A stretch of 64,000 bases of DNA from Nitrosopumilus sp. (GTDB lineage Archaea; Thermoproteota; Nitrososphaeria; Nitrososphaerales; Nitrosopumilaceae), in contig OZ245003.1 in NCBI GenBank assembly GCA_965223425.1, positions 736,001 through 800,000 on the forward strand, given 5' to 3'. Position numbers and translations under genes: made by a program. Below, piece after piece: positions 46,274 to 57,965 of this stretch (within the stretch, counting starts at the first letter, position 1; the number at the start of each line of letters is the position of its first letter). The notes under the pieces were generated by a model. It did not search any database, was not told where the DNA came from, and was given only the letters and a program-made list of their open reading frames with translations.

Positions 46274-47857
46274 TTGCTAACTGTAAATAAATTTCAAAAT
46301 AACGTATCCCTAATGAGAACAAAAATAACATCACTGCTGATGATTGCAACCTTGGTTGCTATCGCACCGCCATTAAACGCAAATGCTGAATCAATGCCCG
46401 AAACACCTCAAGCAAATTTAGACTATAACCTAGTTGGAGCTGGTGCAACGTTTCCATTCCCATTAATTGATTTGTGGAGAGTTGAATACAACAAAATTTA
46501 CGACAACGTAAATCTGAACTACCAATCAATTGGAAGTGGCGGTGGAATTAAGCAACACATTGAAAGAACCGTAAATTTTGCAGCCTCAGATAAACCAATG
46601 AGTGAAGCCGAAATAGAGCTAGCTTCTGGAACACTACACATTCCTGAATCAGTTGGAGGTGTAGTTTTAGTGTACAACGTTCCTGAAGTTCCAAACAAGG
46701 GTCTTAAGCTAACTGCTGATGTCGTAGCTGGAATCTTTTTGGGAGATATTACAAAATGGAACGATCCTGCCATAGTTGCAGAAAACCCAAGATTGAACCT
46801 GCCTGACAAAGACATAGTTACTGCACACAGATCAGACGGCTCTGGAACCACTTTCATATTCACAGATTATCTATCTGTAGTCAGCCCTACGTGGGATGAA
46901 CAGATAGGTAAAGGAAAATCTATTCCATGGCCTTCTGGTCTTGCTGCTGCAGGAAATGAAGGTGTTGCCGGCATCGTAAAGTCTACTGAATATGCAATTG
47001 GATACATTGAACTTGCTTATGCATTCCAAACAGGAATGAGTTATGCATATATTCAAAACGCTGAAAAATCTGCATTCATTGAACCATCATTGGACAGCAT
47101 TTCTGCTGCATCTAGTGGTGTTGCTGACACTTTACCTGCAGCTGAAGACAGCTGGGTTGGAGTGTCACTAGTCAATGCACCAGGTTCTGATTCCTACCCA
47201 ATTGCTAGTTTCACATACCTACTTGTGTATGATGATCTAAAACCGGTAACAAAAAGCAAAGAACAAGCAAAAGCCATAATCCATCTAATTAATTGGATGA
47301 TTACTGATGGTCAGGAATTCTCACCAAGTTTGCTATATGTCCCACTTGCCGATAAGGTAACAAAACTTGGACAAGCAGGATTAAAACAAGTAACATATGG
47401 CGGTGAAGTTCTTTGGGGTGCAAAAGCATCTGCAGATTCAGGAAATATGCCAGAGATGACACAGCAAACTGTAAATGAAGAAAACGGAGGTTGCCTAATT
47501 GCAACTGCAACATATGGTTCTGAAATGGCGCCACAAGTTCAGTTGTTAAGAGAAATTCGTGATAACCAGCTAATGAATACCGCATTTGGCATGTCATTTA
47601 TGGCCGGATTCAATCAGTTGTACTATTCATTCTCGCCACACATTGCTGACATGGAAAGAGAAAGTCCAGCGTTCAAGGAAATGGTAAAGATCGGAATAAC
47701 CCCGTTGCTATCATCCTTGTCCATCATGGAATATGCCGAGTCAGACTCTGAAGTGCTAGGATATGGCATCGGTGCAATTCTGATGAATCTTGGAATGTAC
47801 TTTGCAGCACCGGCTATGTTGTTTTACAGAATAGCAAAGAGAATAAGGCATTCTTGA
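46274..47857 (+). CDS. pstS: Phosphate-binding protein with CFI-box-type C-terminus
   Basis: 'GAGATFP', 'GSGGG' and 'HRSDGSGTT'; 'GGCLIATATYGS'. Confidence 0.95.
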   Translation: MLTVNKFQNNVSLMRTKITSLLMIATLVAIAPPLNANAESMPETPQANLDYNLVGAGATFPFPLIDLWRVEYNKIYDNVNLNYQSIGSGGGIKQHIERTVNFAASDKPMSEAEIELASGTLHIPESVGGVVLVYNVPEVPNKGLKLTADVVAGIFLGDITKWNDPAIVAENPRLNLPDKDIVTAHRSDGSGTTFIFTDYLSVVSPTWDEQIGKGKSIPWPSGLAAAGNEGVAGIVKSTEYAIGYIELAYAFQTGMSYAYIQNAEKSAFIEPSLDSISAASSGVADTLPAAEDSWVGVSLVNAPGSDSYPIASFTYLLVYDDLKPVTKSKEQAKAIIHLINWMITDGQEFSPSLLYVPLADKVTKLGQAGLKQVTYGGEVLWGAKASADSGNMPEMTQQTVNEENGGCLIATATYGSEMAPQVQLLREIRDNQLMNTAFGMSFMAGFNQLYYSFSPHIADMERESPAFKEMVKIGITPLLSSLSIMEYAESDSEVLGYGIGAILMNLGMYFAAPAMLFYRIAKRIRHS

Positions 47858-47886
47858 TCTACGCCATTTTTTATTTATTTTTGAGA

Positions 47887-49134
47887 TCAACTAGTGGTTC
47901 TGATCAAATCTCGGTTCTGTGAAGTTATCGGGAGTTGACCCCTATAACTCGACTTTGACATATCGACTATTCGGACTACCAATGGTGTGCTGGGTTCCGT
48001 CATCGCCGGCTCAAAAGTGCCGGACTGCGCTTCACATATGTCATCTCTACTACCCCTAAACCTGGGGGGCAGCTTGCGTGATATGTTGTTCATGGCAGCG
48101 ACAATATCCCTGTCCATAAACAAACCGCAATTATTACACGACAGTTTACGATGTTGTTGTTGCATGTCCTCTTGGAGTCTCTTTCCGCATTGCGGACACT
48201 GCGTGCTCGTGTTTCTTGGGTCTACTGTCTCGACTGGAGGTAGCCCGACCCATTGGGCTTTGTATTCTATTTGGCGTTGCAGCTCGTAGAATTGCCACCC
48301 GTTCAATCTGCGCCTGTACTTGTTGCCTTGACTGTTTCCTTTTCGGTACAATTTTCTTATTCCTTTCAGGTTTTCCATGACGATTGCAGTCTTGTTTTTG
48401 ACTGCGTTGTCTACTATATCCTTTGAGATTCTGTGGATGTACTGCCTTGCTCTGTCAGTCAGTCTTCTCTGTCTTTCCTTGTAGAACTGATTTTTCTTCC
48501 TGCGGTCATTTCTGTGGAAGCCTGCCCTGGCGTGTATTGTGTTCTCCTTTATGGATAACAGCTTGTTTGTCTTGTAGACTGTCACCCCTTCCTCGTTCCC
48601 ACACGTCACATTTCTTAGGTTTCTGTCTATTCCGACTTTCTTGGTGCACTCTATCTCTTGTACTTTTTTTGAAACACAAAGACTGATGTTGAGGGCAGTC
48701 AGTGAAAACGAGCGCACCGTCAGGGCGGGATCAGACAGGATTTTTTGGGTGTGATCGTTGAGTAAAATGTTGATTGGGTTATGTTTCTTGTATGGGATTG
48801 TTAGTAGTGCACCGTTGTGTTTTATGCCGTAACAGTTTGTCATAAAGGGATTTTTGACTATTGGATCTCTTATTCTGACACCTCGTTTGACTGATTGTTT
48901 TCTGTTTGATAATATGCCTGCAGCTTTTGATATTGCACATATCTTGTATGTTGATAAAATGTCATAGTTACGCAATTCGTGATAACATAACATGGACAGC
49001 CTCTTCATATTGTGAGTGTCTTCTTTCAACCCTATCTTGATGCAATGATTGGCCATCTTTGTGAATGTAGCCGCCATATCCATTAGGTCAGAGTTCGGCG
49101 CATATTTCTGTGATATTGGCTTTATCGCCTTCAG
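47887..49134 (-). CDS. tnpB: TnpB RNA-guided nuclease (start uncertain)
   Basis: RuvC 'GIDRN', 'MENL' and 'DRD'; 'WQFYELQRQIEYKA'; CPQC/CNNC zinc finger. Confidence 0.92.
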   Translation of the reverse strand: MKAIKPISQKYAPNSDLMDMAATFTKMANHCIKIGLKEDTHNMKRLSMLCYHELRNYDILSTYKICAISKAAGILSNRKQSVKRGVRIRDPIVKNPFMTNCYGIKHNGALLTIPYKKHNPINILLNDHTQKILSDPALTVRSFSLTALNISLCVSKKVQEIECTKKVGIDRNLRNVTCGNEEGVTVYKTNKLLSIKENTIHARAGFHRNDRRKKNQFYKERQRRLTDRARQYIHRISKDIVDNAVKNKTAIVMENLKGIRKLYRKGNSQGNKYRRRLNGWQFYELQRQIEYKAQWVGLPPVETVDPRNTSTQCPQCGKRLQEDMQQQHRKLSCNNCGLFMDRDIVAAMNNISRKLPPRFRGSRDDICEAQSGTFEPAMTEPSTPLVVRIVDMSKSSYRGQLPITSQNRDLIRTTS

Positions 49135-49203
49135 CGAATATCTTGCGGTTTGGAGGCTTATACATTTTGGGAATTGACATATAACCCCCGATAACTTCAC
49201 AGA

Positions 49204-49396
49204 CGTTATACGAAATCTTTTCTGTATCCTGTGATGTATCGTTACTGTTGGGCCTGAGAGTTGAATGGTTACTGTCATGTACAAGGGCGTTTCACAGACT
49301 AACTCAAAGTGAGCGGAAAACAAAATACCACACAGATGATGGTGAATGGGAGCATTCCGCAGAATCAGGCAATTTGATCAGAAAGGAGGTGATAAT
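49204..49396 (+). ncRNA. Candidate bridge/seek RNA region
   Basis: Long leader containing TTCACAGA (target match) and ATGGGAG (donor match). Confidence 0.5.
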
Positions 49397-50471
49397 ATGA
49401 TCAGCATAGGAATTGACGTTCACAAAAACAGGTGCGTTGCAACAGTAAAAAAAGATACCAGAAAAAAGCTGGAACAGTCAAGCTTTGAGAACACCACACG
49501 TGGAATAACGGGTTTTATCAGACACGTCAAAAAGACATACGGCAAAGACATGCAAGCAGTGTGCGAATCAACTGCCAACTACTGGATTAGACTGCATGAC
49601 ACACTGGAGGATAACGGCATTGATACTGTTCTTGCACACCCTGCAAAGACCAAGATAATAGCACAGGCAAAACTCAAAAACGACAAGCTCGATTCAGACG
49701 TATTGGCAGACCTGCTAAGATCTGACATGGTGTACGAGTCATTTGTACCAGAAAAATACTATCGGGACCTGCGCAGTCTGGTAAGAACAAGACTGAATCG
49801 CGTACACAGTGTCTCAAAACACAAAAACATGATTTATGCAATACTTGCAAAATACGACTACACCCAACCGACAATAAAGACATTCTCACAGAAAGGAATC
49901 AGATGGCTGCATGAAATCAGTCTGACAGAAGTTGACAGGATGGCAATGGACGCATATCTTGAAAACATTGAGATGAATCAAAAACAGATTGACACATTTG
50001 AGACAAAGATTGCCGCAATTAGCAACGAGGATGAAAGGGCAAGACTAGTCATGACAATGCCTGGAATAAGCTATGTCACGGCACTGACAATAATATCCGA
50101 GATAGTTGACATTAACAGATTTGCAACAGCAGAGAAACTCGTCTCATATGCGGGACTTGCACCATCGCACAGGGACAGCGGAGAGACGCAAAAAGGAGGC
50201 GGCGGAATAACAAAACGTGGTTCTGCATGGCTGCGCAATGCAGGTGGAGGCTGCAAACACCACGATACGATTTGATCCAAGGATGGAATCATTTTATTCA
50301 AGAATCGCAAAGAGAAGAAGAAAACAAAAGGCAAGAATAGCAGCTGCAAGGCAGATGATGCTTGAGATAATCTGGCACATGCTAACAAACATGGAGGAAT
50401 ACCGCACACAGAATCACGAGTTGACGCAAAGAAAGTATAAGAAGATGCAAGACAAATCAGAAACATCCTGA
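49397..50471 (+). pseudogene. IS110 recombinase, frameshifted at ~50240
   Basis: 'IGIDVHK', 'CESTA', 'KNDKLD' and 'SYAGLAP..DSG'. Confidence 0.9.
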
Positions 50472-50611
50472 TTCAGCAAAGCACACTGAGAATGGCCCGC
50501 AGTAGGATAAGGGACGATTTCGTATGGGAGAACCCAAATCTCTATAGAACTATATTCTTCGCATAAAATATGATGATATCCTAGATAACTCCATTTTTAC
50601 GTTCAACAAAT

Positions 50612-51589
50612 GTGGGACATGTAAAGTTCAAACAAAAAAAGCCGAAAAGACGTTCAATTTCTGATAAAATCTTCAAAGTTGGCGCAACTGTAGCAGGCGT
50701 TTACGTTTTAGTGATGATTGTATTGTTAGCCTTTCAATTACTCTCTGAATCATATCCTGTTTGGGAAGAAGAAGGCTTGGGATTCATCTCCGGTACTGAC
50801 TGGAATGCAGTGGAAGGACGTGAGTCTTTTGGTGCTTTGCCTTATATTTTGGGAACGCTAGTTACTGCGGCTCTGGCAATGGTGATAGGCGTTCCGCTAA
50901 GTCTTGGCATTGCAATGTTTATCTCAGATGCTCCTGCAAAGATTGGCGGCCCGTTAGGATTTCTAGTTGAACTTTTAGCTGCGGTTCCAAGCGTAATTTA
51001 TGGACTTTGGGGTCTTTTTGTTTTTAGAATTTATTTTAAGGATTGGATTGAGGTTCCACTTCACAACGCGTTTGGTGATTCTATTTGGTTGTTTTCTGGC
51101 ACTCCTTTTGGTTTAGACATTATCACCGCAAGTGTCATTTTAGCTATAATGATCATTCCGACAGTTTCAGCAGTATCTCGTGAAATAATGAAGGCAGTTC
51201 CTCAACAACAAAAAGAAGCTGCATACATGTTGGGTGCAACAAAGTGGGAGATGTTCAAACTCGCGGTATTTCCATATTCTAAAACCGGTTTGATTGGTGC
51301 GTCAATTCTTGGATTGGGCAGAGCTGTTGGCGAAACTATGGCCGTAACAATGTTGATTGGAAATGCTACGGGTCTTTCAGCAATTCCATCCTCCTTATTC
51401 AAACCAAGTCAAACCATGTCTAGTATTATTGCAAATGAGTTTGTTGAAGCATCTCCTGCATCGTTACATCTTCCTGCATTGATTGCTGTTGCGTTGGTCT
51501 TGCTACTCATTGCAATTGCAATCAATGTTGTAGCTCACATTTTAGTAACTAGAATGCTCAAGGTAAAGGAGGGTGCTATTAACAATTGA
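50612..51589 (+). CDS. pstC: Phosphate ABC permease
   Basis: 'PSVIYGLWG' and 'GRAVGETMA'. Confidence 0.95.
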   Translation: MGHVKFKQKKPKRRSISDKIFKVGATVAGVYVLVMIVLLAFQLLSESYPVWEEEGLGFISGTDWNAVEGRESFGALPYILGTLVTAALAMVIGVPLSLGIAMFISDAPAKIGGPLGFLVELLAAVPSVIYGLWGLFVFRIYFKDWIEVPLHNAFGDSIWLFSGTPFGLDIITASVILAIMIIPTVSAVSREIMKAVPQQQKEAAYMLGATKWEMFKLAVFPYSKTGLIGASILGLGRAVGETMAVTMLIGNATGLSAIPSSLFKPSQTMSSIIANEFVEASPASLHLPALIAVALVLLLIAIAINVVAHILVTRMLKVKEGAINN

Positions 51590-56865: not shown

Positions 56866-57068
56866 GTCTACAGGTTCTACATAGATTTACCTGATCTAAC
56901 AGCTAAGCGAAATGTAAACAGAATATTCATTTTGTTTTGTTGTTAAACACAATTTGAGTCACATTCCATTGTTCTATTCCTATTTTTTGTCCAATTTTTA
57001 GTACATTTCGCTTAGCGGTTCTGTGAAGTTATAGGCACCTGAAAATATGAATTTTCTCTGAATTGAAA

Positions 57069-57965
57069 TCATGCATGCTGATTCAATGAGGCGTTTTGTA
57101 TGATGGTTTTCCACTTGTTAGAACCATCCACTAGTATTCCTGCCATCTCTGCTGGAGTCTTCTTTTCAATACCGCCATGCTTTTTTGAGAAATTATAGAA
57201 TGTCTGGAATCCGTCAAACAACTGGGCTTCTTTAAACATTGGTCTTACATTTTCAGTACCTTTGGTATCTGCTACAAACTGGGTAATCATGAATCTGGTC
57301 TCATGGTCAAGCATGGAGTATTGTAGTTTCATATTGCCCTTAATTTTCATAAAGATTTCATCAGTACGCCAAGTTTCTGATACTCTTGGAACTATGCCTT
57401 TGACATAATCTGCTACCGTTTTAGAGTATTTTTCAATCCAGCCATAGACTGCTCTGTATGATACCTTGATTTCCTCCTGCTCAAAACAGTCTGCAATATC
57501 TCTAACTGACATTCCTGAAAAATACATCTGTAATGCTCTGGTGATCACGGTATTACTGTAACGCATTTTTTCAAATCCAAAATTTGCTGTAAATCCCCTT
57601 TTACAGTCATTGCACTTGAATTTTTGAAGACTGCCTGATTTGTTTTTCTTGATTCCTTTTTTGATAATATTACCTGAATCACAGAACTTGCACACCTTGA
57701 CTAGTGATCCCTCAATTATGCGGAATGTCTGTTCTTGCCCCTCATTGTTTCTGATTAGCTCCAAAACTGTCTTGATGTGCTTGCAGTCTGATTTTCTTTT
57801 GGTGTGATCCGGGCAATCACAAATTAATCCATTGCTTGTCTTTGAGACAATATAATGAATCTGTGGTATGCTTTGAGATCTTACGCTAAATCTTTCTGGA
57901 CTGAACTGCACTGCGCAGTTTGGTAACTCCATCATTTGTGTTGCTCTTTGGGTTCGTGTATTCAT
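57069..57965 (-). pseudogene. SWIM/Zn-ribbon IS6-like DDE transposase with internal deletion
   Basis: 'CDCPDH..CKH', 'CKFC..CNDC', 'WRTDE' and 'YNF..H..TPAE'; the second D/E region is missing; TIR at 57017-57032. Confidence 0.82.

Follow-up and report, generated by a model that had tools for sequence, protein, structure and literature searches.

The stretch of DNA analysed here (the window) comprises 64,000 nucleotides of the genome of Nitrosopumilus sp. (contig OZ245003.1, positions 736,001 to 800,000), the source assembly consisting of 2 contigs with a total of 2.64 Mb and a G+C content of 41%. It carries an insertion sequence of the IS110/IS1111 family that lies within the terminal inverted repeat of an element containing a tnpB gene. 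Very probably, the leader of this insertion sequence encodes a bridge (seek) RNA which targets the end of an IS6-like repeat as an abundant and harmless landing site. All coordinates are window positions; G000 denotes the genome holding the window, while L and G numbers denote related loci and genomes, respectively.

A first-pass annotation, made from the letters of the sequence, had proposed that an RNA-guided recombinase is programmed against the end of an RNA-guided-nuclease transposon. The guide targeting of the repeat is borne out by the comparisons reported below. The other half of the proposal has to be changed, since the repeat is common to several element families and the tnpB element is non-autonomous.

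The 5' non-coding leader would encode an RNA with two internal loops. The target loop would read the outer end of the IS6-like repeat, ...CTTCAC-AG-AACC(C), with the guides at 49264-72 and 49290-99, and the donor loop (guides 49317-25 and 49345-55) would read the joined ends of the element itself, ...GTATGGG-AG-ACGTTAT.... Recombination at the shared AG would have put the element 4 bp from the repeat tip of the tnpB element. With about 50 occurrences in this genome, the repeat would be an abundant and harmless landing site, and the split repeat end a side effect. Aiming at an abundant repeat is in keeping with the habits of the family's characterized members. The RNA would be transcribed and bound by the recombinase, and the crossover chemistry is presumably analogous to that of IS621 and ISEc11.

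Ends, core and insertion site

Both junctions could be read in the sequence. The left one is ...ATAACTTCAC-AG|ACGTTATACG, with AG at 49201-02, and the right one is ...GTATGGG-AG|AACCCAAATCTC, with AG at 50529-30; at greater length they read ...GATAACTTCAC-AG|ACGTTATACGAAATC... and ...GATTTCGTATGGG-AG|AACCCAAATCTC. The trinucleotide AGA, which had been noted at both junctions, is present at both, its third A opening the element on the left and the target on the right. As a core it does not stand, since only AG is constant among the related elements. The bases adjoining AG differ, and the lone exception to AG at the left end among 35 related elements is L022, with TG. On this alignment the insertion core is AG, not AGA.

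The subterminal inverted repeats of 10 bp are perfect, and both they and the splitting of the terminal repeat of the tnpB element had been correctly located in the first-pass annotation. Non-coding DNA in the element amounts to 194 nt upstream of the recombinase gene (49203-49396) and 59 nt downstream (50472-50530). The insertion is site- and orientation-specific and made no target duplication beyond the shared core, the junctions being ...ACAG|ACGTTATAC and ...ATGGGAG|AACC. When 47913-47936 is compared with 49183-49202 joined to 50531-50534, repeats of 24 bp with 1 mismatch are obtained. Since the 24-bp repeat is split and yet flanked on its outside by an 8-bp duplication, the insertion took place into a pre-existing complete repeat.

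Fold of the predicted leader RNA

Relatives of the insertion sequence were found in 12 of 100 other genomes of the family as well as in Nitrosopumilaceae assemblies, the latter holding the closest ones. A consensus fold was calculated with RNAalifold from 23 aligned leader sequences. It consists of five helices around two internal loops (Table 1), in which 96.8% of cells pair and compensatory changes occur at 9 of the 23 pairs. None of 500 shuffles reached the observed values, and slid controls paired at 33-47%.

Guides and guide-target covariation

The leader contains TTCACAGA at 49291-98 and ATGGGAG at 49346-52, which had been pointed out as guide-like matches to the target flank plus core and to the element's own right end, respectively. 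Both lie in unpaired loop strands of the fold supported by covariation. When the leader was shuffled 20000 times by mononucleotides, the 8-mer turned up in 69 cases, the 7-mer in 406 and the two together in 2.

Ends, flanks and loop strands were extracted for 35 elements. Left out of the counts were L029 (left end truncated), L016 and L035 (deletion derivatives), L045, L047, L056, L069 and L079 (no left end or ribosome-binding site found), L051, L054, L065, L066, L073 and L084 (partial matches), and the bacterial loci L070-L072, L074, L076-L078, L080-L083 and L085-L103 (24-37% identity).

For the left target guide, the six bases 5' of AG in the 3' strand of the first loop were compared with the six bases left of the insertion. 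The 35 elements gave 29 distinct pairs, with a cognate mean of 4.34 of 6 matched positions versus 2.05 for non-cognate pairs. At least 5 positions were matched in 16 of the 29 pairs, and the observed mean was reached by none of 10000 permutations. Examples are GTAATAG (L017), CGTAAGAG (L052), TTACACAG (L058-60) and CCGGCAG (L031).

It had been stated that only short left-guide matches are visible in the leader. This was not upheld, as right guides were found at 49264-72 and, as a candidate, at 49317-25. For the right target guide, the 9-nt 5' loop strand was used and complementary runs were counted from the core or from the first base of the right flank. A perfect run of at least 5 nt was obtained in 10 of 25 distinct pairs versus 2% of non-cognate pairs; again, none of 10000 permutations reached the observed mean. 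The loop strand UGAAUACU with AG-TATTCA (L055) and GUAACCU with AG-GTTAC (L064) are examples.

On the donor side, ATGGGAG was confirmed as identical to the element's own right end. The motif is invariant in 23 of 23 aligned leaders, and of the 10 distinct guide/right-end pairs listed, 8 match; the left donor guide therefore provides no covariation evidence. The right donor guide was compared in a fixed register with bases 1-7 of the left end. Pairing was 7/7 in L019 and 6/7 in L023, L024, L026 and L033, L023 and L026 being distinguished by a compensatory change, and the means were 4.71 (cognate) and 4.07 (non-cognate). It is a candidate, and the weakest of the four guides.

The loop strands thus match both target and donor strands and covary with them, as is characteristic of bridge/seek RNAs, the donor side being the weaker one. 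Judged from these alignments, RNA-guided targeting of the IS6-like repeat is well supported. Folding of the leader together with a search for guide-target covariation had been suggested as a check in the first-pass annotation, as had an inspection of the sites of other copies. The fold is supported and the target guides covary with the flanks; the same target was found occupied in the window genome and in three others. Neither unrelated targets of other copies nor matches falling in paired, non-covarying stems, the two outcomes that had been named as fatal to the idea, were encountered.

In L049 (about 1697-2001), and likewise in L019, a left-end fragment of 95 nt precedes the full element. 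The fragment in L049 stops exactly at the DNA of the left target guide (GACCGGCAG). The DNA coding for the guide seems to have been used as a half-matching target there.

Table 1. Features of the insertion sequence, its predicted RNA and the surrounding tnpB element (window positions unless a genome position is given)
Feature	Position	Strand	Remarks
IS110/IS1111-family insertion sequence	49203..50530	+	1328 bp including right-hand AG core copy; junctions read in sequence
Left AG core copy (crossover dinucleotide)	49201..49202	+	AG 5' of left end in 34/35 related elements
Right AG core copy	50529..50530	+	
Left subterminal inverted repeat ATACGAAATC	49208..49217	+	10 bp; 5' extension ACGTT (with core: AGACGTT, 7 bp)
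Right subterminal inverted repeat GATTTCGTAT	50516..50525	+	10 bp; followed by 3-bp extension GGG
Predicted bridge/seek RNA core	49254..49368	+	Enclosing helix (49254-56 with 49366-68), target-binding loop, donor-binding loop
First internal loop	closing helix 49258-63 with 49300-05; capping helix 49273-76 with 49286-89		
Second internal loop	closing helix 49313-17 with 49356-60; capping helix 49326-30 with 49340-44		
Right target guide AAUGGUUAC	49264..49272	+	5' strand of target loop; GGUU (49267-70) complements AACC (50531-34)
Left target guide UUUCACAGAC	49290..49299	+	3' strand of target loop; UUCACAG = left flank + core (49196-49202)
Candidate right donor guide	49317..49325	+	5' strand of donor loop + last stem base
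Left donor guide AAUGGGAGCAU	49345..49355	+	3' strand of donor loop; AUGGGAG = right end + core (50524-30)
Recombinase, frame 1	49397..50275	+	292 codons; DEDD domain and GLAPSHRDSG serine motif; out of frame after 50242
Recombinase, C-terminal part in shifted frame	50243..50471	+	Split from frame 1 by 2-bp (AT) deletion after 50242
tnpB element, left inverted repeat, unoccupied	47913..47936		
tnpB element, inner 20 bp of right IS6-like inverted repeat	49183..49202		Left half of target
tnpB element, outer 4 bp (AACC) of right repeat	50531..50534		Severed by insertion; intact copies read ...CTTCACAGAACC
tnpB frame	47887..49200	-	Putative GTG start 49200-49198; normal stop lost in window copy
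8-bp target-site duplication CAAATCTC of tnpB element	50535..50542, partner 47905-47912		
Other tnpB element copies	G000:C1 at 134372, 286119, 1025392, 1259858, 1325308, 1451399, 1984056, 2033639		

Use of the target in this and other genomes

The repeat tip, searched as TT[CG]ACAGAACC, has 48 unoccupied places in the genome compared with 2.5 predicted from base composition. These empty tips are spread over several element types. The repeat is shared by tnpB elements, by small elements without a gene and by elements with an IS6-like transposase. A second full copy of the insertion sequence, 99% identical and with different flanks, was located at G000:C1:2061317-2062663. This twin occupies the repeat of another element (...CGATAACTTGAC-AG|...|AACCCAAGG). 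Of the left junctions in the genome, 4 of 6 fit CGATAA[CG]TT[CG]ACAG, and 6 of 7 exact right junctions are followed by AACC; the same flanks were seen in other genomes at L046, L062 and L068. Outside the repeat, the fifth right-flank base is C at 6 of 7 occupied sites versus 16 of 48 empty ones (binomial about 0.007), which fits the GGGUU guide of the twin copy. Both empty repeat ends of the window (47913 and 57017) have G at this position.

Relatives of the same lineage elsewhere aim at unrelated sequences. When the target of the L023 class was examined as the end of a repeated element, 2 one-mismatch matches were found in each of two genomes versus 1 control match. The target is an IS6-like inverted repeat common to several element families, and not tnpB specifically.

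The surroundings of the twin (G000:C1:2062640-2064650) are a nest of mobile elements. The twin lies in a short repeat-bounded fragment, and about 900 bp off there is a different IS110-family gene (32% identical).

The splitting of the repeat could also be the purpose of the system. On that account the guides are maintained because a split repeat immobilises IS6-like elements with their tnpB passengers, and not because the repeat is a convenient landing site. It has in its favour that the terminal GGTT was parted from the repeat by an insertion 2 nt upstream of the putative tnpB start, and that the same repeat was struck repeatedly in the window genome and in three others. We consider such an anti-transposon device unlikely. 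About 8-10 of roughly 58 repeat ends are occupied, mostly by decayed fragments, and nine of the ten full-length tnpB elements have both repeat tips free of insertion. The unrelated targets of same-lineage relatives also speak against it. Other IS110/IS1111 members target REP sequences, attC sites and other elements, with no host benefit shown in the account of Siddiquee 2024. For this one tnpB element, lost mobility or expression is plausible because its repeat end is split and tnpB is severed from upstream DNA; immobilisation of the element would be plausible solely by virtue of the terminal GGTT being separated from the rest of the repeat.

Recombinase gene and its frameshift

The recombinase matched PF01548 (E = 6.4e-24) and PF02371 (E = 3.9e-21) of Pfam and NF033542 of NCBIfam ('IS110 family RNA-guided transposase'; 200.5 bits, cut-off 140). 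The structure of the IS621 recombinase (8wt6) was matched with E = 1.3e-13, IGID and DSG being aligned with D11 and S241 of IS621. An N-terminal DEDD/RuvC-like domain and a C-terminal PF02371 domain with the SG motif, the hallmarks of the IS110 superfamily, are thus both present.

A break in the frame, overlooked in the first reading, was found about 25 residues past the serine motif. Two bases (AT) are missing after 50242 in both full copies, and an intact recombinase gene, as expected of an autonomous element, is present in neither. AT is retained in the partial copies L003-L006 of the same genome, and the intact relatives have an uninterrupted recombinase of 357-365 residues. Contigs of public runs show both alleles. 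The deletion allele occurs without other difference in contigs from runs of two studies, and the contig of a third run is also without AT, while contigs having AT differ from the window allele at 9 further positions. As the deletion allele is present in contigs of several runs, it is not an assembly error. An intact cognate recombinase gene was not found in the assembly: the remaining copy of the lineage is 5'-truncated, and further IS110-family genes of the genome are at most 35% identical to the window recombinase.

By its reading frame, the window copy, like its twin, is probably non-autonomous now. In G084, identical internally deleted and gene-less derivatives (L016 and L035) stand at two sites with different flanks. 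Further gene-less derivatives are a 225-bp one at G000:C1:1142834-1143058 and a joint 49255>50378 in run X6. Since one deletion derivative is found at sites with different flanks, elements of this lineage have moved in trans, and the occurrence of a broken element in two copies is most simply explained in this way.

Alternatively the gene could be alive and the element still autonomous, either because the +1 shift after GCA is bypassed in translation or because the 292-residue product is active. The same deletion in two copies at different sites, its recurrence in the contigs of several runs and the position of the catalytic serine motif upstream of the break are in agreement with this. It is nonetheless improbable, as intact relatives read through to 357-365 residues, partial copies in the same genome keep AT, no slippery motif is evident at the frameshift, and movement in trans explains two broken copies without any bypass.

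Points against guide targeting

Besides the broken genes of both full copies and the truncation of the third, several observations weigh against a bridge RNA aimed at the repeat. The right target guide of the window copy pairs over 4 nt only (GGUU), whereas the twin has GGGUU for AACCC. The AC before this helix pairs with the core only if one A is bulged, which puts it 1 nt off the register of its siblings L055 and L060. The right donor guide of the window copy is paired at 4 of 7 positions. Poor fits were also seen among the relatives, 13 of 29 left pairs matching at fewer than 5 of 6 positions and 15 of 25 right pairs having runs shorter than 5 nt. Several of the non-matching relatives come from one genome, whose near-identical copies have exchanged flanks (L053, L058, L067); the poor fits are presumably due to decay and to flank exchange by recombination between copies. 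The related sequences are non-independent, and the permutation counts overstate significance.

As a single sequence, the leader folds no better than its shuffles (z = -0.04). A scan of 47700-50700 against Rfam (E up to 10) gave chance-level matches only and no bridge RNA family. None of the public runs listed as holding the stretch is recorded as RNA, and they offer no expression evidence. No empty-site joint or circle junction was seen in the contigs of four sequencing runs, although contigs cannot show absence.

That protein-DNA contacts alone recognise the repeat, the leader matches being coincidental or relics of recombination with target DNA, is very hard to credit. In its favour, the matches are short (7-8 nt), the left donor guide never varies and the right guide of the window copy spans 4 nt only. 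Against it, covariation with the flanks was seen for both target guides over many classes of target, the guides lie in loop strands between helices kept by compensatory changes, and both leader matches together arose in just 2 of the 20000 shuffles.

Classification and comparison with known systems

The ends and the guide order of the element are IS1111-like, and a subgroup placement made from sequence would stand on these two features. For the subterminal repeats of IS1111 elements, a usual length of 11-13 bp (Siddiquee 2024) or of 7-17 bp (Durrant 2024) is given; those of the window element have 10 bp. Terminal extensions are asymmetric in IS1111 elements, the left one having 7 bp and the right one 3 bp (Siddiquee 2024). 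The window element has AGACGTT (7 bp including the left core copy) and GGG (3 bp), and extensions of the same lengths were found in L019 and L023. In the seekRNAs of IS1111 elements the complement of the top strand is located 5' of that of the bottom strand, the order being reversed in the IS110 type (Siddiquee 2024). Here the right target guide (49264-72) is 5' of the left one (49290-99), as in IS1111. The IS1111 recombinase is described as having a GL-P----S(t)G motif and 330-350 residues (Siddiquee 2024); GLAPSHRDSG is present, and the 357-365 residues of the intact relatives are slightly above that range.

The long non-coding region, which lies downstream of the gene in IS1111 elements, is upstream here. 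This is the only feature that fits the IS110 subgroup, the 10-bp repeats and the reversed guide order being at odds with it. When plasmids were searched with the protein, the best match (37% identity) lay in a haloarchaeal plasmid and was labelled only 'IS110 family transposase', a label which does not separate IS1111 from IS110. The combination of subterminal repeats with an upstream non-coding region had been called atypical in the first-pass annotation, in agreement with Siddiquee et al. 2024, where exceptions of this kind in the IS1111 clade, e.g., ISMtsp17, are mentioned as uncharacterised. ISMtsp17 likewise has IS1111-type features and an upstream non-coding region, the comparison extending to the one sentence given to it in that source. 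An IS1111-like element with an upstream RNA gene is thus a rare layout that was already noted in the literature.

Closest in habit are IS4321 and IS5075 of the IS1111 family. Like the window element they have a DEDD recombinase and subterminal inverted repeats, and they insert in one orientation at a fixed position within the terminal inverted repeat of another transposon family. Their hosts are bacteria, and their target is the 38-bp repeat of the Tn21 family. Their RNA region is downstream of the gene, while the window element has it upstream, in an archaeal host and with an IS6-like target. The target logo of IS4321 was drawn from nearly 900 insertions (Siddiquee 2024).

ISEc21 of the IS110 family shares with the window element an upstream guide-RNA region and a natural target inside other insertion sequences. 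It differs in that the target is a coding region of IS3-family transposase genes, long subterminal repeats are absent, and the bottom-strand complement comes first (Siddiquee 2024). IS621 likewise has a two-loop RNA in its left end and a homologous recombinase, and in each loop the left guide equals the top strand plus core while the right guide is complementary to the top strand, as in the window element (Durrant 2024; Hiraizumi 2024). Each IS621 loop, however, carries the left guide 5' of the right one, and IS621 has CT as its core and subterminal repeats of only 2-3 bp (Durrant 2024), whereas the window element has the reversed guide order, AG as the core and repeats of 10 bp. The targets reported for IS110/IS1111 elements include REP sequences, attC sites and other elements, and host benefit is not shown in that report (Siddiquee 2024). 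No paper on this archaeal lineage was found in literature searches; the supplements of Durrant 2024 and Siddiquee 2024 may already list such elements.

The tnpB element and its IS6-like repeat

The host element is 1291 bp long, has terminal inverted repeats of 24 bp (GGTTCTGTGAAGTTATCGGGAGTT) and carries a single gene, whose product matches PF07282 and NF040570 (TnpB family). The insertion 4 bp from the repeat tip is located 2 nt upstream of the putative GTG start of tnpB. IS6/IS26-like elements are recognised by a repeat that begins with GG and has G as its seventh base, and by target duplications of 8 bp (Harmer & Hall 2019); the host element, with its repeat GGTTCTGTGAAG..., shows all three features. 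No IS6-type DDE transposase is encoded by the tnpB element. The genome contains nine PF13610 (IS6-type) matches, of which one lies about 180 bp away from such a repeat end. Given the IS6-like repeats, the 8-bp duplications and the PF13610 genes elsewhere, the tnpB element is non-autonomous and a passenger in an IS6-like system.

Ten full-length copies of the tnpB element are present in the genome, the others being 83-97% identical to the window copy. The 8-bp duplication is intact in 4 of the ten, differs by one base in 1 and is exchanged between copies or masked by the insertion in the rest. TnpB relatives were found in 10 of 101 genomes of the family (including the window genome and G077).

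In the tnpB elements the putative GTG start corresponds to repeat positions 7-9 and the stop is 22 nt before the opposite end. The stop of the window copy was changed from TAA to TCA, and its frame runs through the left repeat and 26 nt of flanking DNA (47887-47936). TnpB relatives of 46-60% identity in other genera also adjoin repeat ends of this type (L105, L109, L110, L115). A DDE-type vehicle is unlike the settings in which TnpB is usually met, IS200/IS605 and IS607, and it raises the question of the target of the guide RNA. No paper on tnpB within IS6-like elements of these archaea was found in literature searches.

Two inverted copies of the tnpB element, at G000:C1:1325308-1326598 and 1451399-1452689, have swapped duplication halves (AGTTTCTA, TAACATAA), which indicates an inversion of about 126 kb via recombination between the two copies. 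In the window (57017-57965), an unoccupied repeat end of the IS6-like type (GGTTCTGTGAAGTTATAGG) adjoins a frame of 298 residues with a partial match to an IS6 transposase model (70.9 bits, cut-off 125). The other end of this element was not found.

Significance

A broader picture is possible, though it is put forward tentatively. A distinct lineage of IS1111-like elements in the Nitrosopumilaceae may have had its bridge RNA gene moved 5' with the IS1111 guide order kept, and its guides may have been naturally reprogrammed between variants of IS6-like repeat ends. Such elements would be parasites of parasites, splitting repeat tips and uncoupling repeat-embedded tnpB starts from outside promoters, with broken and deleted copies spreading in trans via their RNA and ends.

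The element provides a clean natural example of bridge/seek-RNA targeting in archaea, with about a dozen natural guide/target reprogrammings in related genomes. The intact relatives L019, L023, L026 and L052 are compact recombinase-RNA pairs with known natural targets. The target draws attention to tnpB genes carried in IS6-like, duplication-generating elements, and an IS1111-type RNA at the upstream end bears on how the RNA gene moved between the ends in the evolution of the family.

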